Assembly: GCA_015233405.1 (NCBI GenBank)
Contig: JADFXT010000001.1
Location: forward strand, 169,386 to 233,385
Direction: 5' to 3'
From: Candidatus Omnitrophota bacterium
Lineage (GTDB): Bacteria > Omnitrophota > Gorgyraeia > Zapsychrales > Zapsychraceae
Length of the DNA: 64,000 nucleotides
Shown here: positions 4,812 through 58,483 of the stretch, piece by piece
Layout of the letters: each line of letters starts with the position of its first letter
How positions within the stretch are numbered: the first letter of the stretch is position 1
Position numbers and translations under genes: made by a program
The notes under the pieces: model-generated
Databases searched by the model: none
Seen by the model: the letters and a program-made list of their open reading frames with translations, nothing else
Told to the model about the DNA's origin: nothing

Positions 4812-4910
4812 GTCATCCCCGCGAAAGCGGGGATCCAGGAAATGTTTTTAAGAATTCGGCTCCCATAAAAGTTTACTGCGTAACTGGATTCCCGCTTGCG
4901 CGGGAATGAC
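4812..4910. repeat. GC-rich hairpin-pair element (MITE-like), copy 1
   Basis: GTCATCCCCGCGAAAGCGGGGATCCAG (4812-4838) and its near reverse complement CTGGATTCCCGCTTGCGCGGGAATGAC (4884-4910). Each end is itself a hairpin. Confidence 0.85.
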
Positions 4911-25132: not shown

Positions 25133-25172
25133 GGGATGCTTATGAAGTAAAAGCGATATGAAGAATGTTTTT

Positions 25173-25249
25173 GTCATCCCCGCAATTTTTAGGCGGGGAT
25201 CCACAAGGGTTGAATATATGGATTCCCGACAGAGGCTTTCGGGAATGAC
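25173..25249. repeat. GC-rich hairpin-pair element, copy 2 (in the 5' leader of the giant ORF)
   Basis: GTCATCCCCGCAATTTTTAGGCGGGGATCCAC ... TGGATTCCCGACAGAGGCTTTCGGGAATGAC. Confidence 0.8.
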
Positions 25250-25304
25250 AGCAGTGAAAAAGGAATTACCAGTAGTTTTAGGACGAAAAAAGGGGGCAAT
25301 AAGG

Positions 25305-31300: not shown

Positions 31301-33701
31301 TGTTGTCATGCCTGGACGCTCCGATGCGGCGATGATGACGGGCGGACAAGCCAAAAAATTCCAGGAATTTTTAGATGAATTATTTCAAAGAGAGAAAGAC
31401 CCGGACAAGGAACTTCTTAAAGCGGTTGTCTCCGGAGCAAAACCCGCGGAATTGGTAGGATATCCTAATTTAAATGCCTATGCATTGAACCTTTATAAGG
31501 AAATGCATAATGCGTTCGGTCTTGATTTTGTGATATCGCAAGAAAGAAATAATATATTGATTTATAACGTCGACGCTTTGAAAAATCGTTTAGTGGCAGC
31601 ACAATATTTATTAAATGATATTAAAGGCGGTGAAACGATTTCTGAGGAAATGCTTGAGACAGACTTGCATGATTTTCTGCAATCGACCTTAGACACGTTT
31701 AAGAGTGACCCTTCCGCTTATCACAAGGTCATCGGCATAGCGGTCGGATATCCGTTATCTAAAGTTTGGGGGTTTGACCCAAATCGTAGCATCACTAGCG
31801 TCGGTCTTCCCATGGCCAGTCAATATGCAGCGGGCGTAAGCGATAAATATGGCAAGGAATTTTTAAAGTGGTTAAAAGGCGGAGCATTGGACTTTCCTAT
31901 TAATGGTAAGGAAGATATTGTTTATTTTGAAGACCAGGCTGGCCATGTTTTTGATTTAGCTGTGATGCCACAGCATTCCCGCGTCGTCGTGGAAAAGGTC
32001 ATGGATGAGCCTATCGAATTTGATTTTGGCAACACCAAAGAGTCGACGATGGCGATAAAATTCAGAATGAAGTTTATCAATAATGAAACAGGCGACACTG
32101 TTGAGGAAAAAACAGTGTATTCCCGGGAAGATAAAACGGTTGTCACTTTAGATGATCAGGGCAAAGAGCTGTCGAGACGTACGACGAGTAATGATAATCA
32201 CAAAGTCAGGGTTGAGAATATTACACCAAGAGTTGTTAACCGCGCGGAGGAATATTTAGATTCGGTTTATGAGATTTTCAAACAAATTAGAAAATTCGAC
32301 TCTCTCGCCGGTGACAAGGCGATGATGAGCAAACCTACTGTCAAGACGATGAAAGGCACTTACGGCGGAGAATGGAAGCTTACCAATACAAATACAACCG
32401 AACTTTTGCCTTTGGAGCAGCGTCAGAAAATCAAGAAGGTCGTCTGGACTTTTTCGGGACGCCGCCTTTCTCGGCCATTGTTAGCAAATGCCATGCTGAT
32501 CCCTCAAATAGAACAATTATTCCCGAATGCACAAATAAATATTTACTGCAATCCTGAACAATATTTACTTAAGGCCATGGCTTATGGAAAGCGCGTACGT
32601 ATTATTAACAAGCTCGAACGACAACACATTACGCGGGATACTTTGGTCATTAATTCTGATTTTACATTTCATGAGGGAAGGTACCCGCATTCTGCCGGTG
32701 TCCTGTCAATGGTAACTACTAATGACATTATATTTAAGAAAGGGTCTGCAATCGCAGAGTATAATTTTGAAAAAGCATATTATGATCTCAAAGATTCTAA
32801 GCAGGGCCTATATTATCGTAGGGCTGCGGATGCCTTGCGGGCGTTAGGGCTTAAGGAGATCAAAGGCGACGAGCCTGTGGTTTTTGGACCGGATCAATTT
32901 AGCGACGAGCTTAAATCGAAAATAGCGGCGATACGACAGACCTATTTTGTTGGTAAACCGAAAGAATCCCCGGTTATTTTCTTTAATGCCGCGTGGGGGT
33001 CTGGGTTATCCCGTGGCGAAAGAGATATAAAGGATTGGCAACAATTAATCGGCAATGTTTTACAGAATACCGATGCGTACATCGTTATTAATAAAGGAGA
33101 TCCTACTTGGGTGTCCAGTCAACAGGGAAAAATGCCTATGCGGTTCCAAATTGATGACTTATATCAAAATTTACGTAAATGGTATCCGAAGCAAGCTCAT
33201 CGTTTGGTTGAGATACCATCTGAAGGCTTAGGCAAAGATCTTATTCGGCTGATGGCCGTCATGTCGTTGTCGGATGCCGTCATCACCGAAAATTCCGGTG
33301 TGACGCACTTGGCTGATTTTATGAATAAACCATGCGCGTCTTTCTTGAATCCTTGGTTTCTTAAGTATATGACCAAACGTGTTGATATTTTGGATGATGA
33401 TTTGCAAAAGGCGGATTTGCAAATCAAGGATTTCTTAAAGAAACAAAATATCAATTATCAACCAGAATCCGACGCGGCGATGAGTACGACGGCGCCCGGC
33501 GGTATTGATTTTAATCCGGATCGTTTGAAGCTCGAAAAGAAAGGCGTTCACAGCGATTTTGATTTGCCGACGGACGCCGGGGATCTTGATAAAATTCAGA
33601 TCAACGGTTTGGTTCCGGTTATTTTGCACATCACGCCTGTTACTAACTTGCCGGTTCTTTTAGGCGCGAATCAGAATAATGAAACAATAAAGCCGCTCTA
33701 A
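25305..33701 (+). CDS. giant modular secreted/membrane-associated protein (about 2,798 aa from ATG 25305)
   Basis: Uninterrupted 8.4-kb ORF. ATG 25305 has AGGGGG 8-14 nt upstream and yields a signal peptide MFRGQGTTRSNILKTISLIVLFIFIPQTLFAQ. The ORF-track start at 25158 translates the repeat element. Confidence 0.85.
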   Translation: MFRGQGTTRSNILKTISLIVLFIFIPQTLFAQISLSNLPTPGTMVATSASFVPPVLKGMKVDLKQPFQFDFILDTGNSNLKDDELKEESNKLIRYFLSSLTIPEKDLWVNLSPYEKNRIIPDEFGTTEMGRDLLAQDYILKQITASLMYPENETGKAFWQKVYKKAYDLYGTTDIPTDTFNKVWIVPDKAVVYENPSPKPGEATVFVVEARLKVMLEEDYFATSNTVGAGFPRPEDKGRGNRAPTAIIKEVIIPILEKEVNEGQNFAQLRQVYYSLILAKWYKDSLKESILNRKYSGQKKVMGVDLAGKEDKQKIYEQYLAAFKKGAFNYIKEEYDANSKTLIPRKYFSGGANMGKVPLAKTGDLAMTSRNQTGKLLEVAGRLIDPQKIVEKETRDVRALMTEEEKQYFQKVFPALNLEKALEVPPIETVRNAEELKRKRTDARAKNWENYLKNQKDLRTDILLLLADIKNGTIFTQRDFIDRLAGLNKILLTGKDGKTFYLAPTLSSFMSVKKLHADESNRQNQTLSELAGEYRSTSTKYGALLVKLFREIKNFTELKKDSNTLDVLKQIASIYEIAMEQFLFVSGNNSLFMNMANGLLRLYGFDGIAHYQLDMKLTARIFGKSIKRDFIKLVLKANPQMSLPAHWKSQVSSRKQTMKEIIEENQRFDRAMTVKNDARQDSTKLYKRISSRIPIVLRRGAVAVGLLGLALLPLSDNFQMRDLPPANLAKIALQGNKEALDILKNLADDQGNASAQKAIETLPIKTLADLTAQGNITAFRILLNRMRMNNLVAQNALKTLRVDLLVQRLNKGDRDAFFLLLDLGQDANNLNAQEAFNNIQPQKLAELISRDGNVGATDILENLALWKDDTGIVEILRTVKVQKLAEQAYQGKRDAFDVIAYLYQKYNNVSAKNVLSLFPVQRIVKSVVQGNMDAYLMLESLSAFKNLGTREILRNLNVQQLTERAYQGNKDAINILIMLDKDNQNPAAQKALKDMAVQLISKDKKIFSSQIRSLIPYCDLNTLMDLLLIDKSSIKDPESFRPALYYQIADRILSELQANPNLVGKEAQWAKFRSNYKKAIAGMEGIEQYSPQVMDIVYKSIDLMGTEKLAAVSKEVENEFHVPPMRMLFYNSMPRAVTWLVDAYQEVTQASPNNKLDFNFFYATALVEGWPLVGRTVMEGAQYLDVTTTQPMGLDRFPSVMDKLIKEKKLPGGENFRKRINLYNHRYHGRYQYGQFRDVTSALDALGAMILEDEEYFRQELTARGINPSGVNVDAFRVGTYLHFCTPGDLFKQYFEKYAHNQETGRYDPQGLIGKRGKGKGKPEGQGEFGNGIYNAQYLGATAKLLDLLFPQMNVLLKTSTVKPSAKQENRQTSRLPSSVQNPNKVFYEAIHKRKADLNVALRKVFAASGDVLIGRFTGGRIFNEQEKARAEAANKAVNIIMAEQAHLTSLLNRALDHFVGRNTEAIQKQKEELFFNNVARLVSQQNGSADAAMTVRFIRPILPIVFSGLIALLSNCSPVYLNENPINPIPTSVGEQSPQERINSLVQVVLNTSNTVDERVKAFDSLKSLRAVDALIQLSMSEKATVSAPATYRLADLNDSTAFDKVLKIFINGKSQERDKTIFVLSVLSDNLERGHPYKYLFTCLRDRSDELENKTLSAQDMYLVYSNHEFQRLTNGMEENDQFSVARGIENILVRFHKNINDQNITLAAPDMVEAWQTEGHNLALDGNTQVIASFHKEFDSEKVSFVELMRPFGIILKENSPQFRLFSGSNNPFTLYKTRKGLWQAIENSKGQTLLFFEHHGDGLHLASSSYPTFGMGMLSYDKLARSLSQRARKTGGDLSKVTIVINACYSSDYSLETLNALYDDIAKLSRVLMNDKEITGFPTIVTSTNRGMSGFSTLMSMQKVFAGKQEIHVSDFYDIAREMAGRHQSMGFFLNIPREKLEQLRKKLGAPDKNVNYKSGEQLNPNLPMLNAQLSPKTFNDIARQVSQTGNPTFAVVMPGRSDAAMMTGGQAKKFQEFLDELFQREKDPDKELLKAVVSGAKPAELVGYPNLNAYALNLYKEMHNAFGLDFVISQERNNILIYNVDALKNRLVAAQYLLNDIKGGETISEEMLETDLHDFLQSTLDTFKSDPSAYHKVIGIAVGYPLSKVWGFDPNRSITSVGLPMASQYAAGVSDKYGKEFLKWLKGGALDFPINGKEDIVYFEDQAGHVFDLAVMPQHSRVVVEKVMDEPIEFDFGNTKESTMAIKFRMKFINNETGDTVEEKTVYSREDKTVVTLDDQGKELSRRTTSNDNHKVRVENITPRVVNRAEEYLDSVYEIFKQIRKFDSLAGDKAMMSKPTVKTMKGTYGGEWKLTNTNTTELLPLEQRQKIKKVVWTFSGRRLSRPLLANAMLIPQIEQLFPNAQINIYCNPEQYLLKAMAYGKRVRIINKLERQHITRDTLVINSDFTFHEGRYPHSAGVLSMVTTNDIIFKKGSAIAEYNFEKAYYDLKDSKQGLYYRRAADALRALGLKEIKGDEPVVFGPDQFSDELKSKIAAIRQTYFVGKPKESPVIFFNAAWGSGLSRGERDIKDWQQLIGNVLQNTDAYIVINKGDPTWVSSQQGKMPMRFQIDDLYQNLRKWYPKQAHRLVEIPSEGLGKDLIRLMAVMSLSDAVITENSGVTHLADFMNKPCASFLNPWFLKYMTKRVDILDDDLQKADLQIKDFLKKQNINYQPESDAAMSTTAPGGIDFNPDRLKLEKKGVHSDFDLPTDAGDLDKIQINGLVPVILHITPVTNLPVLLGANQNNETIKPL
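25983..26038. repeat. GC-rich compound palindrome embedded in-frame in the giant ORF
   Basis: GTAGGGGCGGGGTTTCCCCGCCCTGAGGATAAAGGGCGCGGGAACCGCGCCCCTAC. The outer ends GTAGGGGCG/CGCCCCTAC are reverse complements, with two inner hairpins. Confidence 0.75.
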
Positions 33702-33807: not shown

Positions 33808-34005
33808 ATGTTAAAGCGTCATTTAAAAGGTCAAAGCATTACCGAGTATGTCTTGATTTTTGCGGCTGTTTCTATCGTCATTCTAATGGCCTTGGCGCCG
33901 AAACACGGGTTTGTCACTAAAGCCATTGATAACTCTCTGAACATATCGGTTTCAGCCATAGAAAATATGGTTCAAACCGTGAAGTATAATATTGATCTTC
34001 AATGA
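33808..34005 (+). CDS. Flp/Fap-type (type IVb) pilin-like protein
   Basis: MLKRHLKG|QSITEYVLIFAAVSIV fits the Flp prepilin G/xxxxEY motif followed by a hydrophobic helix. There is an AAAAAGGA RBS 7 nt upstream. Confidence 0.55.
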   Translation: MLKRHLKGQSITEYVLIFAAVSIVILMALAPKHGFVTKAIDNSLNISVSAIENMVQTVKYNIDLQ

Positions 34006-34439
34006 GTCCATCCTTAAAAACCACCCTCGAAGAGAAAAATTTAATCAGACGATATCTTATCTGGTGTTATAAGACGACCAAGGAATCTTTAGATAGGATT
34101 GACCGTTATTATACGCAGCTTAAGGCCGATGATTTTATCCTTAAGGAATTAAAGGCCGGCCAGGATTTTAAAAAAGAAGAAAGCAATCCAGCCTATAAAA
34201 CCCTTGTCAAAGGTTTTGAAGATTATATGGCCCAGAAGAAAATAAATGTCGACCAGAAAAAATATTCAGAGTGCGATTTAAAAAACTTGCATCCGGATTA
34301 TCTATATCTTAAGAACCGTTGTTCTGCCATTCAGAACGCCATTGTTCATTTCTTGGGCAAGAAAGAATTAAAGGCCATTCAACAGCTTTATGAACAGGAA
34401 ATGACTCAGCGCATTCTTCAATCCAGAGAACATACTTAA
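34002..34439 (+). CDS. hypothetical helical protein, ATGA-coupled to the pilin-like gene
   Basis: 145-aa ORF with a 4-nt overlap. No recognised motif. Confidence 0.55.
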   Translation: MSPSLKTTLEEKNLIRRYLIWCYKTTKESLDRIDRYYTQLKADDFILKELKAGQDFKKEESNPAYKTLVKGFEDYMAQKKINVDQKKYSECDLKNLHPDYLYLKNRCSAIQNAIVHFLGKKELKAIQQLYEQEMTQRILQSREHT

Positions 34440-34476
34440 TTTTATTTTATAGAGAAATAGAGTGAAACGGGCGAGA

Positions 34477-34734
34477 TTATTTGTGACGCATATCGCGGAT
34501 TCTTTGTTTCTGGGCTTCCATCATGTTTTTACGCTGTTGTTCAATATCATCCATCATCTGCTTTTGTTGTCTGGCTTTGAGTGTAGAATCGATATTGACT
34601 TTCGGCGGTGGAGTTTTGATCAGGCTTTTGAGCCCTTTCATAGCGCCTAAGAATAGGACGCAGGCAATGATGACGCCTGAAATGATGAGGATTGGGAATT
34701 CGTTATCTGCTGCTCCGGAAGTATATTTTTTCAT
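34477..34734 (-). CDS. small single-pass membrane protein with basic/Gln-rich tail
   Basis: ORF taken from MKKYTSGAADNEFPILIISGVIIACVLFLG... The longer ORF-track start is unlikely. Confidence 0.45.
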   Translation of the reverse strand: MKKYTSGAADNEFPILIISGVIIACVLFLGAMKGLKSLIKTPPPKVNIDSTLKARQQKQMMDDIEQQRKNMMEAQKQRIRDMRHK

Positions 34735-34811
34735 AACACAGTAATTATAGAATAAAAAAAACAGTTGAGCAAATTTTTCCTTAAGAAATTTAAGAAAGAT
34801 CACATCGCAAA

Positions 34812-35465
34812 ATGTCTCGGATCATAAAGAATTTAGAAAAATATTTCCTTCTTGTTGTTTTAGGGGTCTGTTTGATGAATAGCAGGCTATTGGCACAAGA
34901 GGCTGTTTCTCCCAAGGTCCAGGATGCCAAACGTCCGACGCCAAAAGTGGAATGGGTCACGCTTCCGATAGAAGTCCCTGTCGAGCGGTATTCGGATTCG
35001 GTCGTGATTATCCCACCATCAACCAAAGCAAAAATTCGAGAGGCATTTAGAAAAGAATTTGAGGCTAAAACAGTCGAGATATTTGTTAAAGGTGAAAAAT
35101 ATAAGTCTATCAGGGAATATCGGGATAAAAATAAAGACGATGTTTCTTTTGAACCGATTGCAAAGGAACCAGATGCAGGTCAGGGAATAAAAACGGCAGA
35201 AGAGGACCTATTAAAGGGAAAACTCGCTCAAAAGCCGTCCCGTCCTCTTAAGGACATTGTGGAAGAGGAATTAGACCGGTTCAGTCCGCCAGAGCATTCT
35301 TCCCAAGCGGTGGCTAGCCAAGGAGAAGCTGGGAACCCTCAAGAGTTGGAGAACATGATGGCGTCTTATTTAGAAGAACATAAGCATGCCCGTCCAGTGG
35401 CGATTGACCCTACGAAAGTCAAGACCATTCTCATCAACTCGAAGAATCCGCAAAAGAATCCGTAG
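34812..35465 (+). CDS. secreted hypothetical protein
   Basis: Signal peptide ...SRLLAQE. No recognised domain. Confidence 0.55.
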   Translation: MSRIIKNLEKYFLLVVLGVCLMNSRLLAQEAVSPKVQDAKRPTPKVEWVTLPIEVPVERYSDSVVIIPPSTKAKIREAFRKEFEAKTVEIFVKGEKYKSIREYRDKNKDDVSFEPIAKEPDAGQGIKTAEEDLLKGKLAQKPSRPLKDIVEEELDRFSPPEHSSQAVASQGEAGNPQELENMMASYLEEHKHARPVAIDPTKVKTILINSKNPQKNP

Positions 35466-45541: not shown

Positions 45542-45649
45542 GCATTAATATTTCACCTATATTACCCCAGACTTTAGATATTATTAATATTATTTATATT
45601 AACCGAAACGCACACCTGGTGCGTGAATGGAAATAAAGAGAGGGATGGC

Positions 45650-46849
45650 ATGTTTAATACTATTGAACAGGTCCTTGAGGATTTAAAACAAGGGAAAATG
45701 ATCGTTGTGATGGATGATGAAGGCCGGGAAAATGAAGGCGATATCTTATGTCCGGCAGAGTTTATCACGGCAGATAAGATCAATTTTATGGCCAAAGAAG
45801 CGCGGGGCTTAGTTTGCATTCCTATGAGCGAAGAGCGCCTCAATGAGCTCGACCTTCACCCGATGAAGGTGCATATTAGCCACCGGCATCAGAAGTGTGA
45901 CACGGGTTGGGCTATTTCCGTGGACGCATCACATGGTGTGACGACCGGTATTTCAGCGGCGGATAGAGCGCATACCGTTAAAGTCCTTATTGATCCCAAA
46001 TCCAAACCGTCAGACTTAATTACCCCAGGACATTTGTTCCCTTTACGCGCTGTTCAGGGCGGGGTATTGGTTCGCGCCGGGCATACGGAAGCTTCCGTCG
46101 ATCTGATGAAAATCGCAGGGCTTTATCCGGCCGGGGTTATTTGTGAGATCATGAATGAAGATGGGACCATGGCTAGGACAAAAGACTTGATCGCATTTTC
46201 TAAAAAACATAATTTAAGGATCTGCACGATTGATAGCCTGATTGAATATTTAAGGACAAAGCAAAAGCTCGTCGAGCGTTTGGTCGATACGAAGCTGCCT
46301 ACGCCTTACGGGGAATTTACCATGATCGCCTATCGTTCCAAGATCGACGGCTTTGTGCATGTTGCCTTGACGTTCGGGGACATTAACAAAGAAGAGCCTG
46401 TGTTGGTGCGGGTCCAGTCGGAATGTTTAACGGGTGATGTGTTTGGATCTTTGCGATGCGATTGCCGCGACCAGTTGACGGCGGCTTTGGAAACGATCAG
46501 CAAAAATGGGTCCGGTGTTTTGATTTATATGCGCCAGGAAGGCCGGGGGATTGGGCTGGTCAATAAATTAAAAGCCTACAATCTGCAGGATGAAGGGCTT
46601 GATACCGTCGAGGCCAATGAGGCGTTGGGATTTGCCGCGGACTTAAGGCATTACGGCTTGGGCGCTCAGATCCTCGTTGATTTAGATATTAGAAAGATCC
46701 GTTTGCTGACGAATAATCCGCGAAAGATCGTCGGATTAGATGGATATGGACTCTCTGTGGTGGAACGTGTTCCGCTTCAGGTTCCGCACAATGAGATCAA
46801 TGAAAAATATTTGAAGGCCAAAAAAGAAAAATTAGGACATTGGTTATGA
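45650..46849 (+). CDS. ribBA: bifunctional 3,4-dihydroxy-2-butanone-4-phosphate synthase / GTP cyclohydrolase II
   Basis: [18 protein letters not shown], and [14 protein letters not shown] motifs. Start at [12 protein letters not shown]. Confidence 0.9.
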
Positions 46850-47355
46850 TGCTGGGTTTGTCGACGAAAAAAGCCGGTGTTATTTTAGAAGGCAATAGTA
46901 AAGATAAAGCCAAAGGCAGCCGGATTGCTATTGTGGTGTCTAAATTCCATGAATTTGTGACCCAGCGGCTTTTGGACGCGGCTTTAGAGGAATTGACAGC
47001 CTGCGGAGTAAAGAAAAACGATATTGTCGTAGCGTGGGTCCCAGGTGCGTTTGAAATTCCGCTCGTGGCCCAGACGCTTGTCGCTAAAAAAAACATTGAT
47101 GGCGTTATCTGTTTAGGCGCGGTTGTCCGGGGAGAAACGAAGCATTATGACCTCGTCGCGGAGAATGCGGCGCGGGGCATTGCCCAGGTTTCTTTAGCGA
47201 GCGGCAAGCCGGTCATTTTTGAAGTTTTGGCGACGGACACCATGGAATTGGCCTACAAGCGTTCAGAGGAAAAAGGAATTAATAAAGGGCGCGACGCCGC
47301 ACATGCAGTGTTGGAAATGCTGGATTTGTTGAGCCAGACGGATAAAATTAAGTAA
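46840..47355 (+). CDS. ribH: 6,7-dimethyl-8-ribityllumazine synthase
   Basis: [13 protein letters not shown]...WVPGAFEIP...G.VIRGET.HYD pattern. Confidence 0.9.
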
Positions 47356-47357
47356 GA

Positions 47358-47475
47358 ATCCTAAATCCGAATATCGAAATACGAAACAAATTTTAAAATT
47401 TTAAGAATCAAAAAGCCTTTCGAATTTCGGATTTGAATTTATTGTTTAGAATTTTGATATTCGGATTTCAATTTT
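47358..47475. repeat. AT-rich long imperfect palindrome, copy 3
   Basis: AAATCCGAATATCGAAATACGAAACAAA ... TTCGAATTTCGGATTTG ... GATATTCGGATTTC. It shares a central AAGAATCAAAAA block with copy 4. Confidence 0.75.
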
Positions 47476-47478
47476 TTA

Positions 47479-47593
47479 TTGAGCAACAATAAGCCACGAC
47501 CGACCACGAAACGTGCGAGGAAGTGGTTGAACGATCAAGAAAACACGACCGAGCACGAAACGTGCGAGGAAGTGGTTGAGCAACGGCGAAACC
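47479..47593 (+). repeat. start-codon-proximal leader repeat array B (2 short units plus terminal GAGCAACGGCGAAACC|ATG)
   Basis: Two units of 48-49 nt: ...CACGACCGA(C/G)CACGAAACGTGCGAGGAAGTGGTTGA... Confidence 0.85.
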
Positions 47594-48034
47594 ATGCGTA
47601 AACGAACCGAATCACGAGAAGCTGCTTTGAAAGTCCTTTACCAGGCGGAAATCACCCGCCGGGAAATCAGCGTTGCCTCTGAAAATTTTTGGGCCGACCG
47701 TGAGGATATTGATGATACCGTCCTGAAATTTTGCGAGCGTATCACTTCTGGCGTTCAAAAGCATTTTCAAGAGATCGACGACAAGATCGTCCATTATGCT
47801 GCCAATTGGCAATTGAAGCGTATGGCGGTGATTGACCGCAACATTTTAAGAATCGGCGTATTTGAAATGCTTTTCACCTCCGATGTTCCCCCGAAGGTTT
47901 GTATCAATGAAGCCGTGGAACTGGCAAAGAAATATGGCGACCTTGATTCCAGCAAGTTCGTCAATGGCATCCTGGATAAAATCCATAAAGTTGAAATCCT
48001 TTCCAAAGATAAAGACCATGAGCCAGTGGGCTGA
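47594..48034 (+). CDS. nusB: transcription antitermination factor NusB
   Basis: MRKRTESREAALKVLYQ... It is 146 aa from ATG 47594, with a DRNILRIGVFE motif. Confidence 0.9.
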   Translation: MRKRTESREAALKVLYQAEITRREISVASENFWADREDIDDTVLKFCERITSGVQKHFQEIDDKIVHYAANWQLKRMAVIDRNILRIGVFEMLFTSDVPPKVCINEAVELAKKYGDLDSSKFVNGILDKIHKVEILSKDKDHEPVG

Positions 48035-48857
48035 TCTTCACATCCATACCACTTTCTCCGATAGCACATTGTCTCCCCTAGATGTCGTTAAAGATGCGTA
48101 CAAAAATGGCGTCGATTGTATCGGCATCACGGATCACGATACTGTGGCGGGCATTCTTCCGACGATCAATGAGGCCAAGAAATATAATATTGAGGTTGTT
48201 CCGGCCATTGAACTTTCGTCGGAATTAAACGGCCGGGATATCCATGTCTTAGGATATTATTTTGATTACCATAACGCAGCCTTTGTCAATCAGCTTTCCA
48301 GTATGCAAAATACGCGCGTCGAACGGATGGACAAAATGATCGGGAAATTGCATGACCTTTTCGGGATTAATAATATTTCCCTTAAAGAAGTTTGTGCTTT
48401 GGCGGGGACAAAATCCGTCGGAAGGCCTCATTTAGCGACGAAATTGATTGAGAAAGGCTGGGTGTCCGATATTCCCACGGCTTTTAATAAATTTATCGGC
48501 GAGCGGGCCCCGGCGTATGTTCCTAAATTTAAGCAAACCCCTCAGGAAGCGGTTCAGTTCATTCACAAGGCCGGCGGAGCGGCCGTATTGGCGCATCCGG
48601 TCATCACGCAGATCGATGAGCTCATTCCCCAATTGGTGGCCTCCGGGCTCGACGGACTTGAGGTCTATTACCCAAATGTTTCCGGTAATATTACTCGATT
48701 CTATGAGGGTATGGCCCAGAAACATGATCTTGTTATGACGGGCGGCTCAGATGCCCACGGTACAGCCAAGGTTTATGAATATATCGGCATGGTGAAAGTT
48801 TCTTATGCGCGGGTTGAAGAATTAAAGAAACGGGCTGAGAGGTATAAAAAAATTTAA
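48018..48857 (+). CDS. PHP-domain phosphoesterase (TrpH/YciV-like)
   Basis: ADLHIHTTFSD, ITDHD and GGSDAHG motifs. The ORF-track start at 47862 overlaps nusB out of frame. Confidence 0.8.
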   Translation: MSQWADLHIHTTFSDSTLSPLDVVKDAYKNGVDCIGITDHDTVAGILPTINEAKKYNIEVVPAIELSSELNGRDIHVLGYYFDYHNAAFVNQLSSMQNTRVERMDKMIGKLHDLFGINNISLKEVCALAGTKSVGRPHLATKLIEKGWVSDIPTAFNKFIGERAPAYVPKFKQTPQEAVQFIHKAGGAAVLAHPVITQIDELIPQLVASGLDGLEVYYPNVSGNITRFYEGMAQKHDLVMTGGSDAHGTAKVYEYIGMVKVSYARVEELKKRAERYKKI

Positions 48858-48988
48858 ATTCGAAATACGAAAAACGAAATAAATTTTAAATTTCCAAGAA
48901 TCAAAAAATCTTTTGAATTGTTTCGCTTTTCGATATTCGGGTTTCGAATTTGTTTCGGATTTCGTGTTTAGAGTTTCGAGTTTCAAAA
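48856..48988. repeat. AT-rich long imperfect palindrome, copy 4
   Basis: AAATTCGAAATACGAAAAACGAAAT ... TTTCGATATTCGGGTTTCGAATTTGTTTCGGATTTCG. Confidence 0.75.
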
Positions 48989-48993
48989 ATTAT

Positions 48994-50082
48994 ATGACTG
49001 ATGAATTTTACATGAAGCGGGCGATTCGATTGGCCCAAAAGGGAAGAGGCGAAACATCCCCTAACCCGATGGTCGGCGCTGTGGTCGTCAAAGGCGGTAA
49101 AATTATTGCTGAAGGCTGGCACAAAAAATATGGCCAAGCCCACGCCGAAGTGAACGCTTTTAATAACGCGAAGGTCTCTTTAAAAGGCGCAACGCTTTTC
49201 GTCAACCTCGAGCCTTGTCATCATTTTGGGCAAACTCCGCCGTGTGTAGATGCGGTTATAAAATCCGGGATCAAAAAGGTGGTCATCGCCATGAAAGATC
49301 CGAATCCGTTAACGAACGGCAAATCCATTACTAAGATGAAGAGCTCCGGCATAGTTGTTAAAGTCGGGGTTTTAAAAGATGAAGCGGAAAAGCTTAACGA
49401 GGCTTTTGTTAAAATGAAGAAAAGGAACATGCCTTTTGTCATCGGGAAAATTGCCCAAACTTTGGATGGTAAAATTGCTACGCAAAGCGGATCGTCTAAA
49501 TGGATAACGTCAGAGGCGACAAGATTTCTCGCCCGAAAATTAAGAGCGGAGTTCGACGCGATCTTAGTCGGAATCAATACCGTCCTTAAAGATGACCCGT
49601 CGCTTAATGCGGATGGAAAAATTCGGGGGCTTAAGAAGATTGTGTTGGATTCCCGATTGAAAATATCTTTAAGCGCTCGATTATTTCAAGGATGTCTTTT
49701 AAGCGATTGTATTATTGCAACGACACAAAAAGCGTCTCAGCAGAAGATCAAACAATTTCGGAATAAAGGCGTTACCGTCATTGTCTGCCCGGAAAAACAG
49801 CAGAAAGTTGACCTTAAATGGTTGTTCAAAGAACTTGCCAAGCAAAAGATTATGAGTATTCTAATAGAAGGCGGCGCCAAAGTTTTGGGAAGCGCGTTGG
49901 CTGAGGAGCTGGTGGATAAGCTTCATGTTTATATCGCTCCAAAGCTCGTCGGGGACCAGAACGCTTTATCATCTGTCGACGGCCTAAAAATCACAGATAT
50001 TTCCAAAGCTCTTAAGTTAAAAAATATGGAAGTTCAGCGGATGGGTGAGGATATTTTTGTGTCGGGATATCTTAAGAAGTAG
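48994..50082 (+). CDS. ribD: bifunctional riboflavin biosynthesis deaminase/reductase RibD
   Basis: NPMVGAVVV, HAEVNA and PCxHxGxTPPC deaminase motifs, plus a reductase C-terminus. The ORF-track start at 48913 translates the repeat. Confidence 0.9.
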   Translation: MTDEFYMKRAIRLAQKGRGETSPNPMVGAVVVKGGKIIAEGWHKKYGQAHAEVNAFNNAKVSLKGATLFVNLEPCHHFGQTPPCVDAVIKSGIKKVVIAMKDPNPLTNGKSITKMKSSGIVVKVGVLKDEAEKLNEAFVKMKKRNMPFVIGKIAQTLDGKIATQSGSSKWITSEATRFLARKLRAEFDAILVGINTVLKDDPSLNADGKIRGLKKIVLDSRLKISLSARLFQGCLLSDCIIATTQKASQQKIKQFRNKGVTVIVCPEKQQKVDLKWLFKELAKQKIMSILIEGGAKVLGSALAEELVDKLHVYIAPKLVGDQNALSSVDGLKITDISKALKLKNMEVQRMGEDIFVSGYLKK

Positions 50083-50086
50083 CTTC

Positions 50087-50114
50087 TGTCATTCCCGCCT
50101 TCGCGGGGATGACA
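50087..50114. repeat. solo GC-rich hairpin (same family as the hairpin-pair elements)
   Basis: TGTCATTCCCGCCTTCGCGGGGATGACA. Confidence 0.75.
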
Positions 50115-50152
50115 AACACAGGCATAATAAGAAAATAGAAGAGGTATGAATT

Positions 50153-50779
50153 ATGTTCTCAGGCATTATTGAAGAAACCGGTATCGTGGAAGAAATTGAA
50201 AAGAAGCCAAATCTTTGCGTTTTAAAGGTAAGAGCCAAAAAAGTTTTAAAAGACGCCAAGCTGGGATCCAGCATCGCTGTCGACGGGGTTTGTTTGACCG
50301 TGACCGCTATCAAGAAAGATATTTTGTCCTTTGATATCATGCTCGAAACGATGAAGAAAACGACACTGGGTTCCGTAAAGCCGAAGACGCATGTCAATCT
50401 GGAGCGGTCCTTAAAGATGAGCGACCGGATCTGCGGGCATTTTGTCTCAGGCCATGTGGATGCTATGCAATCCGTCACCAAGATCATTACGGGCGAGAAT
50501 TATACGGAATTGCGGATAAGCCTGACAAAAGAACTTCATAAATATGTGGTGCCTAAAGGCTCTGTTGCGCTCGACGGCGTGAGTTTGACCGTCGGAGATG
50601 TGAGACAGAAAGATTTCTCAGTATATTTGATTCCATTCACGCTTCAAGTGACGAATTTAGGCTATAAAAAAGAAGGTAGTCCGATCAATATTGAGACCGA
50701 TATTTTGGCGAAATATTTATTCGCCCAGTCTCGGGATAAAAGTTCTAATCCGTATTCGTTTAAGAAAGACAATAATTGA
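50153..50779 (+). CDS. ribE: riboflavin synthase
   Basis: MFSGIIEETG start and duplicated ...SIAVDGVCLTV / ...SVALDGVSLTV lumazine-binding repeats. Confidence 0.9.
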   Translation: MFSGIIEETGIVEEIEKKPNLCVLKVRAKKVLKDAKLGSSIAVDGVCLTVTAIKKDILSFDIMLETMKKTTLGSVKPKTHVNLERSLKMSDRICGHFVSGHVDAMQSVTKIITGENYTELRISLTKELHKYVVPKGSVALDGVSLTVGDVRQKDFSVYLIPFTLQVTNLGYKKEGSPINIETDILAKYLFAQSRDKSSNPYSFKKDNN

Positions 50780-50783
50780 GCTT

Positions 50784-51024
50784 TCACTACGACCGAGCAC
50801 GTAACCTGACTGCCGTCAGGCAGGTGTGTTAGGAAGTGGTTGAGTAACAAAGAAACTACGACCGAGCACGTAACCTGACTGTTGTCAGGTAGGTGTGTGA
50901 GGAAGTGGTCAAGCAACAAGAAACCACGACCGAGGACGTAATGTCCGAGGAAGTGGTCAAGCAACAAGAAACCACGACCGAGGACGTAATGTCCGAGGAA
51001 GTGGTCGAGCCAACAGGCGAGACC
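50784..51024 (+). repeat. start-codon-proximal leader repeat array C (2 long plus 2 short units, terminal ...GGCGAGACC|ATG)
   Basis: The long units carry the nested hairpin CCTGACTGCCGTCAGGCAGG. The two 48-nt short units are identical (CAAGCAACAAGAAACCACGACCGAGGACGTAATGTCCGAGGAAGTGGT). Confidence 0.9.
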
Positions 51025-52263
51025 ATGAAAAAACGCGTTGTCATCACCGGTGCAGGGATCATTGCCAGTAACGGAAAGGGCAAGGAAGAGTTTTGGCAAA
51101 ATCTTCAAGACGGCAAGACCGGCTATCGGCCCATTACGTTATTTGAGACCGGGGATTTTCTGGTCAATATGGCGGGTGAGATCACGGATTTTGACGCCTC
51201 GCTTTACGTCGGGAAAAAGGGTTTAAGGCTTTTAGACCGAAGCACCCGGCTTCTTATTTCTGCCGCGCATTTAGCCATTGCAGATAGCCAATTACAGATA
51301 ACGGATGATAATACCGACGATGTCGGCGTTTCCGTGGGAACGACCTTCGGCAGCTTAAAGAGTATCAGCGATTTTGACGAGGTGACGCTGCGCGAAGGCC
51401 CGCGGTATACCAATCCCGCACTTTTCCCCAATACGGTCATCAATTCTCCGGCCAGCCAGGTGTCCATTTGGAACAATATCCAGGGATTTAATACGACGAT
51501 TTCGACGGGATTCACCTCCAGCATTGATGCGATGAGCTATGCATATGATTTTTTACAGATGGAACGCGTTAAGGTGGTTTATACCGGAAGCGTTGAGGAG
51601 CTTTGCCGTCAGACGTACGACGGATTTCATTCACTACAATTTTTATCCGGCTCGAAGCAAGGCGAGGCGTTCGTCAATTGCCCGTTCGATAAACGGCGTA
51701 ACGGGATAACGCTCGGTGAAGGTGCGGGCTTGATTTCTATGGAAGATCATGCGCATGCCGTCGAGAGAAAAGCACCTGTTCTCGCTGAAGTCCTTGGGTT
51801 TGGTTACAGCTTTGACCCGTTTCGTATTCACAAATATAATCCCCGCGGCACAGGGTTAAAAGAGTCGCTTCGGCAGGCCTTAGAGAACGCTCAATTGGAA
51901 TTAAAGGACATCGATTATATTTGCGCTAATGCCAATTCCACGCAAGCTGCGGATAGAATTGAAACGCAGGCGATCAAAGAAGTTTTTGGCGAATGGGCGT
52001 ATAAAATTCCAGTCAGTTCGATCAAATCCATGACCGGGGAATGTTTTAGCGTCTCGGGGACTTTTGCCGTGATCGCGTCTTTAGGCGCGTTGGCTAAAGA
52101 TTTCATTCCTCCGACGGTGAATTATAAAGAAAAAGACCCGGAGTGTGATTTGGATTACGTTCCTAACGTTGCCAGAAAGGCGCGGCTCAATAATATTTTG
52201 ATCATCACCTTCGGCCCGAATGGCAGTAATAGTTGCATGGTGATTGGAAGGTATCGGGGATAG
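51025..52263 (+). CDS. beta-ketoacyl-ACP synthase II-like protein lacking the Cys-His-His catalytic triad
   Basis: It is 412 aa from ATG 51025 and collinear with FabF as I recall it. Positions matching FabF C163/H303/H340 read F163 (51511-51513), N302 (51928-51930) and E339 (52039-52041). Confidence 0.8.
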   Translation: MKKRVVITGAGIIASNGKGKEEFWQNLQDGKTGYRPITLFETGDFLVNMAGEITDFDASLYVGKKGLRLLDRSTRLLISAAHLAIADSQLQITDDNTDDVGVSVGTTFGSLKSISDFDEVTLREGPRYTNPALFPNTVINSPASQVSIWNNIQGFNTTISTGFTSSIDAMSYAYDFLQMERVKVVYTGSVEELCRQTYDGFHSLQFLSGSKQGEAFVNCPFDKRRNGITLGEGAGLISMEDHAHAVERKAPVLAEVLGFGYSFDPFRIHKYNPRGTGLKESLRQALENAQLELKDIDYICANANSTQAADRIETQAIKEVFGEWAYKIPVSSIKSMTGECFSVSGTFAVIASLGALAKDFIPPTVNYKEKDPECDLDYVPNVARKARLNNILIITFGPNGSNSCMVIGRYRG

Positions 52264-52274
52264 CTCATTTTGTT

Positions 52275-52373
52275 GTCATCCCCGCGAAAGCGGGGATCCA
52301 GGATACGGGGTAAGTTTCAACAGGAATCAAAAGCTTAAAACATTAACTGGATTCCCGCTTACGCGGGAATGAC
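52275..52373. repeat. GC-rich hairpin-pair element, copy 3
   Basis: GTCATCCCCGCGAAAGCGGGGATCCAG ... CTGGATTCCCGCTTACGCGGGAATGAC. It is 99 bp, the same length as copy 1. Confidence 0.85.
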
Positions 52374-52399: not shown

Positions 52400-53146
52400 A
52401 TGAATCTAAAAGGAAAAGTTGCCATTGTGACCGGCGGTGGACGAGGAATTGGCCGGGCCATTGTCTTAAAATTGGCAAGCTTGGGCTGTAACGTGGCGTT
52501 TAATTATGTGAAAAATAAAGAAGCAGCCGCCTCGTTAGAAAAAGAAGTCCAAAAGCTCGGCGTGAAATGCCAGTCCCGTTCGGTAGATATTAAAGATTTT
52601 GCCAAGGTCAAAGAGTGGGTGGATTTTATTAAGGAAGAATTCGGCGGACTGGATATCCTGGTCAATAATGCGGGAATCATCGTCGATAAAGCGCTCATGT
52701 TGATGTCCGAAGAAGATTGGAATTCGGTGATTGATACGAATTTAAACGGCATGTTTAACGCCTCGCGCGCCGTTATCGTCACATTTTTAAAACAGAAAAG
52801 CGGGCACGTGATTAATATTTCGTCGGTGAGCGGCCTGATCGGGCTGCCTCGTCAGACCAATTATTCGGCGAGCAAGGGCGCCATGAATGCCTTTACGAAA
52901 TCTTTGGCCAAAGAAGTTGCTGCGTACGGAATTAAAGTTAATGCGATTGCCCCGGGATTTATTGAAACGGAAATGTTGAGCGAATTTAGCGACGAGCAAA
53001 AACAGAAAATTTTAGACATGATCCCGCTGGGCCGGATGGGTTCGGTTCATGATGTCACGGGGTGTGTGGAATTTTTATTGTCCGACGCCGCGCAATACAT
53101 TACAGGACAAATTATTCAGATTGATGGTGGATTAGCGATAAGATAA
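52400..53146 (+). CDS. fabG: 3-oxoacyl-ACP reductase
   Basis: TGGGRGIG, NNAG and S...YSASK motifs are intact. Confidence 0.85.
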   Translation: MNLKGKVAIVTGGGRGIGRAIVLKLASLGCNVAFNYVKNKEAAASLEKEVQKLGVKCQSRSVDIKDFAKVKEWVDFIKEEFGGLDILVNNAGIIVDKALMLMSEEDWNSVIDTNLNGMFNASRAVIVTFLKQKSGHVINISSVSGLIGLPRQTNYSASKGAMNAFTKSLAKEVAAYGIKVNAIAPGFIETEMLSEFSDEQKQKILDMIPLGRMGSVHDVTGCVEFLLSDAAQYITGQIIQIDGGLAIR

Positions 53147-53157
53147 TTAAGAAATGA

Positions 53158-53280
53158 AAGAGGGGTTTCCCCTCCCCCCTTAAAAATTGTGGGGAGGGCG
53201 TAGGGAGGGGGGCGATTTAAAAAGATATTTCATCGATTCACCCCCACCTGCACCTCCCCCATCGAAAAGGGGGAGGGAAA
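53158..53280. repeat. G-tract/C-tract palindromic element with a G-quadruplex-type run
   Basis: GAGGGGTTTCCCCTCCCCCC ... GGGGAGGGCGTAGGGAGGGGGG ... CCTCCCCCATCGAAAAGGGGGAGG. Confidence 0.65.
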
Positions 53281-53336
53281 ACTAATGGATTGCGATTTAA
53301 AGTTTTGACAGTATATAAAAAAAGAAAGGACTTGCT

Positions 53337-53771
53337 ATGCAATTAGACGTTCGAGAAATCCAAAAAATTCTTCCGCACCGTTTTCCATTTTTGATGATCG
53401 ATAAGGTCGTCGAGTGTGAGCCGAACCAAAAGCTTGTCGCGATCAAGAATGTTTCGGTCAATGAGCATTTCTTCGTCGGGCATTTTCCGGATGAGAAGGT
53501 CATGCCGGGCGTTTTGATCGTGGAGGCCATGGCGCAGGCTGGGTGCATTTATTTTTATTACAGCAAGAATATGCAAGGCAAGAACCTCATTTATTATCTC
53601 GCCAAAGTCACGGCCAAATTCATCGCACCCGTAGTCCCTGGTGACCAGCTAAAAATTGAGGTGACGACCATCAAAATGCTTCCCAAAGCAGGATTCCTCG
53701 AAACCAAGGCCTTTGTCGGCGATAAGCTCGTTGCCGAGGCGGAAATTGGGTTTGGAATTAAAGAGGTGTAA
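53337..53771 (+). CDS. fabZ: 3-hydroxyacyl-ACP dehydratase FabZ
   Basis: LPHRFPFLMIDKV and HFxxxPVMPGVLIVEAMAQ motifs. Confidence 0.9.
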   Translation: MQLDVREIQKILPHRFPFLMIDKVVECEPNQKLVAIKNVSVNEHFFVGHFPDEKVMPGVLIVEAMAQAGCIYFYYSKNMQGKNLIYYLAKVTAKFIAPVVPGDQLKIEVTTIKMLPKAGFLETKAFVGDKLVAEAEIGFGIKEV

Positions 53772-54005: not shown

Positions 54006-54080
54006 CGGGGAGTAGCGCAGTTGGCTTAGCGCGCAACGTTCGGGACGTTGAGGTCGCGGGTTCAACCCCCGCCTCCCCGA
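54006..54080 (+). tRNA. tRNA-Pro (anticodon CGG), CCA not encoded
   Basis: Cloverleaf read by eye: acceptor CGGGGAG/CTCCCCG, D arm GCGC...GCGC, anticodon arm CAACG-TTCGGGA-CGTTG, and T arm GCGGG-TTCAACC-CCCGC. Confidence 0.85.
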
Positions 54081-54113
54081 TAAATTTTAGTTCTTTAAAG
54101 AAGGAGCCCACAG

Positions 54114-54511
54114 ATGACAGACGGCAATTCTTCCCTTGACCCTAATCTTCCACGGGTTGAGCTGAATTTAAGCCAGGAACGCAATTGGGCGATGTTTTGT
54201 CATTTAAGCGCGTTGACCTGCTTTATCGGCATCCCCTTCGGGAACATTTTTGCCCCGCTTATTATTTGGTTCGTGAAACGAAGAGGCATGTCTCTCGTCG
54301 ACAGAGAAGGCCGGAAGGCCTTGAATTTTCAGATATCCATGACGATCTATGCGCTCATTGCCGCTATTCTTTGTTTCTTCCTGGTCGGATTTCTACTGAT
54401 CATCCCGCTGATCGTTGCGGACATCATCATTACGATCGTTGCCGCTGTTAAGACAAAAAAGGCCAAGGATTTCGAATATCCTTTTGCGATCAGATTCTTT
54501 AAGCCTCTACA

Positions 54512-54515
<4 letters not shown>
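54114..54515 (+). CDS. DUF4870-like membrane protein
   Basis: ERNWAMFCHLSAL...PLIIW pattern plus TM segments. The family name is from memory. Confidence 0.6.
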
Positions 54516-57306
<2,791 letters not shown>

Positions 57307-57486
57307 CCATGCCCGAGGAGGACTGAGGACGAAACCTGACTGCCGTCAGGCAGGTGTCCGAAGAAGTGGTTGAACAATGAAGAAAACACGACTGAGGACG
57401 AAAGGTCTGAAGAAGTGGTTGAACAGCAACAGAACCCATGCCCGAGGACGAAATGTCCGAGGAAATGGTTGAGCAACGGCGAAACC
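57307..57486 (+). repeat. start-codon-proximal leader repeat array D (1 long plus 2 short units, terminal GAGCAACGGCGAAACC|ATG)
   Basis: CCATGCCCGAGGAGGACTGAGGACGAAAC[CTGACTGCCGTCAGGCAGG]TGTCCGAAGAAGTGGTTGAAC..., followed by two shorter units. Confidence 0.9.
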
Positions 57487-58381: not shown

Positions 58382-58483
58382 GTCATTCCCACAAAAGTGG
58401 GAATCCAGTAAATTTTTTTAAGATTTTGGTTCATTGTTTGCGTTTAACCCATTATTCTGGATCCCCGCTTTCGCGGGGATGAC
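58382..58483. repeat. GC-rich hairpin-pair element, copy 4
   Basis: GTCATTCCCACAAAAGTGGGAATCCAG ... CTGGATCCCCGCTTTCGCGGGGATGAC. Confidence 0.85.

Follow-up and report, generated by a model that had tools for sequence, protein, structure and literature searches.

A FabF paralogue lacking the catalytic triad, encoded with FabG and FabZ in an orphan arrangement in Omnitrophota

A FabF-like gene without a catalytic triad

The subject of this report is a ketosynthase (KS)-like gene of Candidatus Omnitrophota bacterium, located in a stretch of 64,000 nucleotides (nt), hereafter the window (GenBank assembly GCA_015233405.1, contig JADFXT010000001.1, positions 169,386 to 233,385 of the forward strand). 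It represents a housekeeping region in a metagenome-assembled genome (MAG) of Omnitrophota, with the gene order pgsA, pgpA ... ribBA, ribH, nusB, PHP-domain gene, ribD, ribE, KS-like gene, fabG and fabZ, followed by tRNA-Pro, DUF4870, acylphosphatase, ligA, xerC ... ribF and mraZ (Table 1). The riboflavin block directly upstream of the KS-like gene is the conserved anchor of this type of locus, being found in the same order at loci L001, L002, L083, L084, L085, L140, L166 and L196. Independent assemblies share the entire block, ribBA to fabZ, at the same eight loci and at L003, with fabG missing from the block in L084. At some orthologous loci there are short overlaps, a few bases long, between ribE, the KS-like gene and fabG; in L001 and L083 the overlap of ribE with the KS-like gene leaves no spacer.

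To place the catalytic positions, the KS-like protein was aligned using MAFFT with both chains of PDB entry 9s5h, 120 homologues and Escherichia coli FabF. The protein can be aligned with FabF over its full length, and Phe, Asn and Glu occupy the positions of the catalytic Cys-His-His triad, while the structural Lys is retained (Table 1). The position of the gate Phe is taken by Pro (P398). HMMER alignments to Bacillus subtilis FabF and to the two 9s5h chains gave an identical register, free of gaps at the catalytic sites. An earlier note, made from the sequence alone, had described a protein collinear with FabF in which C163, H303 and H340 are changed to F163, N302 and E339; its codons and residues proved exact, and an alignment restoring a Cys and two His residues, which the note itself had named as the decisive counter-observation, was not obtained by either method. 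Since the best 120 homologues share the substitutions, Asn being kept in 114 of them, they are fixed in the family and represent neither sequencing errors nor chance. As judged from its sequence, the protein is a full-length FabF paralogue that should be unable to condense, because Cys-His-His has become Phe-Asn-Glu.

The relationship to canonical FabF is nevertheless clear. The KS-like protein equals canonical FabF in fold and length, is 33-36% identical to it and retains the Asp/Glu/Lys structural network, but lacks both the triad and the gate Phe, and scores 355 bits against the fabF equivalog model TIGR03150, short of the cutoff of 493.75. It likewise falls under the cutoffs of all 19 further NCBIfam KS models. 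That it might be a normal FabF misread through an error of register has a practically negligible probability, given three independent alignments in agreement and scores below all curated FabF cutoffs. In public databases the protein (P0001 in our set; MBF0521642.1) is labelled beta-ketoacyl-acyl carrier protein (ACP) synthase (NCBI) or 3-oxoacyl-ACP synthase II (JGI), and metabolic reconstructions of Omnitrophota that take it for a FabF are wrong. The open reading frame (ORF) is intact and its ATG at 51025 agrees with the start of homologues of 412 amino acids (aa). An in-frame extension from GTG 50893 and the 452-aa model of NCBI both read through tandem repeats, and because of these upstream repeats the NCBI gene model is 40 residues too long.

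Among the best 120 database matches one is the window's own protein, the others are 65-76% identical to it, and those that carry a name come from Candidatus Omnitrophota or Omnitrophica. The same range of 65-76% was obtained when the window was compared with five orthologous loci, at which ribH, nusB, ribE, ligA, rbfA and truB are only 45-65% identical; for the set without rbfA the range is 51-62%. An AlphaFold2 model of the single chain, built on 60 sequences, has a pLDDT of 93.1 and a pTM of 0.94 and displays a complete thiolase-type KS fold; Foldseek superimposes it on B. subtilis FabF (4ls5/4ls8) with a TM of 0.96 and a root-mean-square deviation of 1.9. The part of the model predicted with the weakest confidence is the helix-loop-helix region at residues 101-140. 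Comparison of these sequences indicates a maintained protein under strong purifying selection. One could view the gene as the relic of a duplicated FabF that is decaying or has lost its function, because all three catalytic residues are gone and repeats have been inserted on both sides of the gene in this genome, but we consider this very improbable: the ORF is intact, the protein is better conserved across lineages than the products of neighbouring essential genes, the substitutions are kept in the best 120 homologues, the fold is predicted confidently and synteny is preserved. The relic reading is contradicted by the conservation data. The term pseudoenzyme, used in the earlier note, is thus apt for a non-catalytic protein and in no further sense, since the protein is under strong purifying selection.

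Relationship to amxFabFmut and to complete modules of relatives

Among solved structures, the top sequence match of the KS-like protein is chain C of 9s5h, with 49% identity over the full length (E-value 3e-126, 424.5 bits). The scores were 273 bits for B. subtilis FabF, the best true FabF, 271 bits for 9s5h chain B and 129 bits for 1tqy_B, the actinorhodin chain-length factor (CLF). Based on sequence, the 9s5h chains match B. fulgida amxFabFmut (C) and amxFabF2 (B) of a recent preprint on anammox bacteria, although the PDB code was not found in the papers; a search with chain B retrieved Brocadiales FabF2 proteins at 95% identity. Thus, the KS-like protein is nearer to amxFabFmut than to either active FabF or amxFabF2. 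The inactive amxFabFmut and the active amxFabF2 co-purify as a heterodimer; either protein alone is inactive, whereas the pair decarboxylates malonyl-ACP and makes acetoacetyl-ACP (Granatino et al., May 2026, 10.64898/2026.05.19.726425). The authors provide biochemical and structural evidence that amxFabFmut serves amxFabF2 as a CLF-like partner. According to the same work, amxFabFmut alone is completely inactive with malonyl- and with hexanoyl-ACP, its residues F135 and V139 line the tunnel, its helix-loop-helix motif is disordered in the homodimer crystal of the S. brodae protein, and ACP touches the inactive subunit of the anammox complex over about 300 square angstroms (10.64898/2026.05.19.726425).

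The KS-like protein shares with amxFabFmut (KustE3606 / Broful02170; 9s5h C) the FabF-derived KS fold, the replacement of both His residues by Asn and Glu, the conserved Lys, the tunnel Phe and Val (F134 and V138) and an adjacent gene for a FabZ resembling amxFabZ. They differ at the Cys position, which is Val or Thr in amxFabFmut and Phe in the KS-like protein. They also differ in genomic setting, since the KS-like gene sits in a housekeeping block of a non-anammox phylum and has no adjacent active KS-alpha of the amxFabF2 clade, amxACP, radical SAM or phytoene-dehydrogenase genes. With the anammox 'Cluster I' (putative ladderane) the window shares only the FabZ and inactive-KS components; its co-genes for amxACP, B12 radical SAM protein and a phytoene-dehydrogenase homologue were found nowhere in the window. 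The best conserved part of the protein is the helix-loop-helix 'lid' that includes F134 and V138 (Table 1). It is 64% identical to that of amxFabFmut, compared to 47% for the remainder of the protein, and 77-82% identical to the lids of the KS-beta proteins of L135 and L108, compared to 57-58% for the remainder. The latter two are the nearest relatives with an adjacent active KS (60% identity) and have the same F-N-E-K-P signature. In a neighbor-joining tree the KS-like protein falls inside a clade of inactive KS proteins, in which bootstraps are below 50; the clade is poorly resolved and the tree supports no specific sister relation to amxFabFmut. In the same tree amxFabF2 groups with two KS-alphas of non-anammox modules (L006 and L007), with 84% bootstrap.

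Inactive FabB/F paralogues of K. stuttgartiensis were already listed by Rattray et al. 2009 (PMC2649909, Table 2). Comparison of the residue table alone reveals that one of them, Kuste2805, has F163/N298/N300/K328/E333, corresponding to F163/N302/N304/K334/E339 of the KS-like protein. However, Kuste2805 keeps the gate Phe, which is Pro in the KS-like protein, and is clustered with acpS and a B12 radical SAM gene. CLFs of type II polyketide synthases (PKS), such as 1tqy_B, ishigamide Iga12 and aryl-polyene ApeC, are also Cys-less subunits of the KS fold that heterodimerise with an active KS and shape the acyl tunnel. They are more distant from the KS-like protein than is true FabF, as the above bit scores show, and the KS-like protein has Phe163 instead of Gln and no adjacent, coupled KS-alpha. 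The sequence comparisons suggest that the KS-beta lineage to which it belongs has derived from FabF independently of the CLFs of aromatic PKSs. In a 2023 catalogue of KS-CLF pairs, Candidatus Omnitrophica is among the 14 phyla carrying pairs.

To see how common such proteins are, we surveyed stand-alone and fused forms among the best 150 representatives of 50% identity clusters (proteins P0241-P0390). Nearly half of them (74) are stand-alone KS proteins devoid of the Cys-His-His triad; the Cys position is most commonly Phe (29 of 74) and the second His is replaced by Glu in 56. The earlier note had likened the protein to CLF or KS-beta partners on account of a KS fold unable to condense and had remarked that Phe is not the Gln of CLFs. 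The homology to amxFabFmut supports the former, and the latter remark is correct, Phe being the residue found most often at this position in the survey. Two-domain proteins of roughly 800 aa make up about a third of the 150 representatives, and in 49 out of 50 an active KS is fused to a triad-less KS domain. These active-inactive fusions provide Rosetta-stone evidence for pairing. We place the KS-like protein in a recently characterised group of FabF-derived, CLF-like subunits; its orphan arrangement is unusual and is conserved across its lineage.

The two genes that follow are intact, as the earlier note had stated. FabG has the N...S...YxxxK motif, read from the sequence, and is 55-60% identical to FabGs encoded beside KS-like relatives or in complete modules, compared to 42-50% for those of canonical Omnitrophota fabH-fabD-fabG-acpP-fabF clusters. 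When FabZ was compared with solved structures, the five amxFabZ entries (identified from PMC10139942) took the first five ranks. Two differences set amxFabZ apart from canonical FabZ, namely, Ile69 in the tunnel and the loss of the basic residues for ACP docking at positions 96 and 115. In the window FabZ and its orthologues the catalytic His and Glu are present, and residues 96 and 115 are non-basic (I and L in the window), which agrees with amxFabZ and departs from canonical FabZ. The Cys at position 69 matches neither protein, since amxFabZ has Ile there and canonical FabZ has Gly. Sequence similarities of both proteins suggest that they are the dedicated reductase and dehydratase of a module and not plain housekeeping copies.

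A scan of JGI metagenomes for the family motif PFDKRRNG returned at least 120 loci, the counts from which are samples and not censuses; the generic motif DP[DE]CDLDY filled the matches listed from a scan of GTDB genomes with canonical FabFs. Among the loci listed, relatives with 44-63% identity to the KS-like protein typically occur in a module of FabG, KS-beta, ACP, FabZ and KS-alpha (e.g. L090, L108, L114, L116, L122, L135, L138, L173, L176 and L195). A KS of the amxFabF2 clade lies within 6 kb at 22 of 37 such loci, and most of the rest are contigs ending on that side. In all 11 aligned modules KS-alpha has an intact CHHKF signature; the KS-alphas are 53-64% identical to each other and about 40% identical to FabF, and at the five loci checked the KS-alpha gene overlaps that of FabZ by 4-11 nt. 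In the complete modules L135, L108, L195, L090, L116, L122, L173, L176 and L006, KS-beta is 48-60% identical to the KS-like protein, and the encoded FabG and FabZ are orthologues of the window proteins. In contrast to the window lineage, which has neither, the complete modules include an intact KS-alpha and most of them also a dedicated ACP.

A second subfamily of pairs (L089, L107, L117, L121, L133, L141 and L177) has the order ACP, KS-alpha and inactive KS; its KS-alpha is 44-60% identical to amxFabF2, and its inactive KS is 36-40% identical to the KS-like protein. At least one PD-(D/E)XK (PDDEXK_3) gene has been inserted between genes of the KS-beta/ACP/FabZ/KS-alpha module of L006 (L006:1167-1640 and 2892-3317; the second ORF looks similar), a locus in a MAG that is labelled Nitrospirae and stems from the 0.1-micrometre fraction of groundwater. 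Tetranucleotide composition of the L122 module correlated with that of L001 from the same metagenome at r = 0.87, no better than with unrelated loci.

Possible function in the absence of an adjacent partner

The absence of a partner KS, acpP, fabD and fabH from the window, pointed out in the earlier note, was borne out: tblastn found no other KS, ACP, FabD or FabH in the window and no remnant of a KS after fabZ, and a profile of 83 ACPs detected no ACP in its six frames. These searches exclude an ACP or KS-alpha pseudogene hidden in the spacers. Canonical fabH-fabD-fabG-acpP-fabF clusters do occur elsewhere in Omnitrophota genomes. On balance, and with restrained confidence, we think that the KS-like protein is probably a non-catalytic KS-beta that limits chain length as the trans-acting partner of a ketosynthase whose gene lies elsewhere. 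We infer that in this organism it forms a heterodimer with an active KS, which might be either a relocated KS-alpha or the housekeeping FabF. The conserved lid, with F134 and V138, would complete and narrow the acyl tunnel of the partner, so that product length would be limited to short or medium chains, around C6-C8 by analogy with the anammox complex. FabG and FabZ, presumably co-transcribed with the KS-like gene, would process the intermediates of this side branch of type II fatty-acid synthesis.

Several observations weigh against this reading. No active KS is found within 51 kb upstream or 11.7 kb downstream of the KS-like gene, and neither an active KS nor an ACP is present at the 12 window-type loci listed (at least 64% identity, the window included; in L001, L083 and L085 the flanks were covered for 10 kb on each side). 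The two genes of a KS/CLF pair usually lie side by side, in many cases with translational coupling. No partner KS was identified in any genome of the window-type lineage, and a profile of Omnitrophota FabF, with at least 120 matches, did not show a FabF on the same contig as the KS-like gene. The anammox heterodimer has been seen in vitro to carry out only malonyl-ACP decarboxylation and acetoacetyl-ACP formation, and the homodimer crystal of S. brodae amxFabFmut implies that a stand-alone dimer is physically possible (10.64898/2026.05.19.726425). The chain length and product proposed above are carried over by analogy. A search with amxFabF2 matched only anammox proteins, at 64% identity or more.

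The KS of L023 was considered as a relocated partner and rejected, being equidistant, at about 45%, from FabF and from the KS-alpha clade. L023 (L023:2911-13192, Omnitrophica bacterium GWA2_41_15) is a lipid cluster with a fusion of a major facilitator superfamily (MFS) protein and an acyltransferase, a hydrolase, an acyl-AMP ligase, an active KS, an ACP and a B12-binding radical SAM protein; its KS lies outside both the canonical FabF group and the KS-alpha clade.

The lack of a nearby KS at 12 out of 12 listed window-type loci could also mean that the protein has no KS partner at all, and was kept as a homodimer after the loss of KS-alpha and ACP for another non-catalytic job, such as retaining acyl-ACP intermediates or offering them to the FabZ and FabG encoded beside it, or acting as an acyl-ACP sensor. 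Consistent with this, the conserved core of the locus consists of the KS-like gene and fabZ (L084 has no fabG), amxFabFmut was seen as a homodimer in the crystal, and ACP does contact the inactive subunit in the anammox complex. However, the tunnel-lining segment is the best conserved part of the protein, near-identical in relatives with an adjacent active KS, and is the very segment that is disordered in the homodimer crystal. A conserved lid is hard to explain without a partner's tunnel, and we regard a partnerless function as unlikely, though deserving serious weight. Decidedly improbable, in our opinion, is a neofunctionalised enzyme, in which the F/N/E/K pocket would catalyse another reaction on an ACP-bound substrate (decarboxylation, hydrolysis or isomerisation). 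The invariance of E339 and K334 and the near-invariance of N302 would fit such an enzyme, and new substrates for paralogues of this sort were suggested by Rattray et al. 2009 (PMC2649909). Yet a bulky Phe replaces the nucleophile, amxFabFmut alone is inactive with the substrates tried, and the xxEK pattern is also found in the second domain of many KS-KS fusions, which is the silent half.

Irrespective of the partner, the pair of inactive KS and FabZ is widespread in Omnitrophota, and complete modules are present on many non-anammox metagenome contigs. Based on these modules and on the Omnitrophota pair, control of chain length by an inactive FabF paralogue seems to be a general strategy in side branches of bacterial type II fatty-acid synthesis. 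The orphan arrangement is a natural experiment on whether such a subunit can function with a distant partner or without any.

The neighbours of the module in relatives offer some hints about its products. Immediately before the KS-beta gene, L135, L176 and L202 have genes for dihydrolipoyl dehydrogenase (TIGR01350, above cutoff), octanoyltransferase LipB (TIGR00214, above cutoff) and a stand-alone lipoyl-domain protein. L135 and L202 are the two closest relatives with upstream sequence, L176 being more distant. This linkage suggests a dedicated supply of octanoyl-ACP for lipoylation in these relatives, an idea in line with the preference for C6-C8 that has been published for the FabF pair and FabZ of anammox bacteria. 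By extension, the trio in the window may be a remnant of a self-contained C8 fatty-acid synthase supplying octanoyl-ACP for protein lipoylation, which we consider fairly improbable. If it were so, an orphan inactive subunit would cap the housekeeping FabF of Omnitrophota at C8, as a bacterial counterpart of mitochondrial fatty-acid synthesis, and the anammox 'ladderane' FabF pair would represent a general device for chain-length control rather than a ladderane-specific one.

In other relatives, the module is followed by a thioester reductase (L006, L108, L116 and L122), with a flavoprotein of the CrtI family or amine-oxidase type also present in L108, L116 and L122, whereas L006 has only the reductase. 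A nitroreductase is encoded in L108 and, by sequence similarity, in L116. Methyltransferases are found upstream in L195, L186 and L182; L173, L138, L122 and L200 encode an acyl-ACP-reductase-like protein. Such varied neighbours suggest a portable unit for chain building whose products enter different tailoring steps. None of the tailoring or lipoylation genes found next to the relatives is present in the window. The arrangement in L108, L116 and L122, in which a seven-transmembrane histidine kinase also follows the module (Pfam-confirmed for L108), recalls parts of the anammox cluster; the contigs are non-anammox.

Repeats and other features of the window

The spacers around the KS-like gene and the two genes after it contain repeats of different types (Table 1). 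The tandem arrays upstream of the KS-like gene are in frame with the downstream ORF and represent a lineage-specific insertion. A repetitive extragenic palindrome (REP)-like element (TCCCCGCGAAAGCGGGGA) is present in six copies in the window, where 0.1 would be expected, and twice it forms a pair with copies 73 nt apart. A related 50-bp tandem array (x2.5) at 57356-57477 overlaps the predicted start of xerC; it too is in frame with the ORF downstream, so that both arrays inflate gene models. These intergenic repeats are among the elements dispersed in this genome, are absent from orthologous loci and carry no information about the KS-like gene. The arrays and spacer elements described in the earlier note are real, but the hairpin present six times and the array at xerC mean that they are not specific to the KS-like gene. 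Related arrays and hairpins elsewhere in the window also rule out the upstream repeats as a gene-specific leader.

Table 1. Features of the window and linked regions at related loci (positions at the latter are prefixed by the locus)
Feature	Position	Strand	Basis and remarks
Riboflavin block ribBA, ribH, nusB, PHP-domain gene, ribD, ribE, directly upstream of the KS-like gene	45623..50779	+	Pfam
Tandem arrays between ribE and the KS-like gene, 69-bp unit x2.3 and 48-bp unit x2.4	50786..51015		TRF, repeat finder
KS-like gene, predicted non-catalytic FabF paralogue (KS-beta / CLF-like)	51025..52263	+	412 aa; Pfam KS N- and C-terminal domains
Helix-loop-helix 'lid', residues 105-148, including F134 and V138 (amxFabFmut F135 and V139)	51337..51468	+	Alignment
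F163 in place of the catalytic Cys, codon TTC	51511..51513	+	MAFFT alignment; Phe in 120/120 homologues
N302 in place of the first catalytic His, codon AAT	51928..51930	+	Asn in 114/120 homologues, also in amxFabFmut
K334, retained structural Lys	52024..52026	+	Lys in 120/120 homologues
E339 in place of the second catalytic His, codon GAA	52039..52041	+	Glu in 120/120 homologues, also in amxFabFmut
REP-like hairpin pair in the KS-fabG spacer	52279..52369 (52279-52296, 52352-52369)		Read from sequence
FabG-type ketoreductase of the module	52400..53146	+	TIGR01830, 300.6 bits, cutoff 297.75
G/C-rich inverted repeat in the fabG-fabZ spacer	53165..53282 (arms 53165-53181, 53266-53282)		Repeat finder and sequence
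FabZ-type dehydratase, probably amxFabZ-like	53337..53771	+	Passes both FabZ models; catalytic His and Glu present
tRNA-Pro (CGG)	54006..54080	+	ARAGORN; downstream of fabZ, at the position of the active KS gene in relatives
REP-like element copies	4816-4833, 4889-4906, 50092-50109, 52279-52296, 52352-52369, 58462-58479		
LipB-linked regions	L135:105-7194; L176:1751-7888; L202:1-1921		
Reductase-linked regions	L108:695-6039; L116:5395-10747; L122:2266-6957; L006:4568-5830		

The tRNA-Pro gene and that of the DUF4870 membrane protein (together 54006-54515), which lie between fabZ and the acylphosphatase gene, do not occupy this position in L001 and L083. Within the riboflavin operon, the PHP-domain gene (47862-48857, + strand) between nusB and ribD is conserved in Omnitrophota loci L001 and L083-L085. 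A giant ORF at 25158-33701 (+), coding for 2847 aa, has no Pfam match, and three other sizeable ORFs likewise belong to no Pfam family (10684-12732, 34002-35465 and 56791-57306, all on the + strand). The Pfam-less ORF after ligA is syntenic in L001 and L083.

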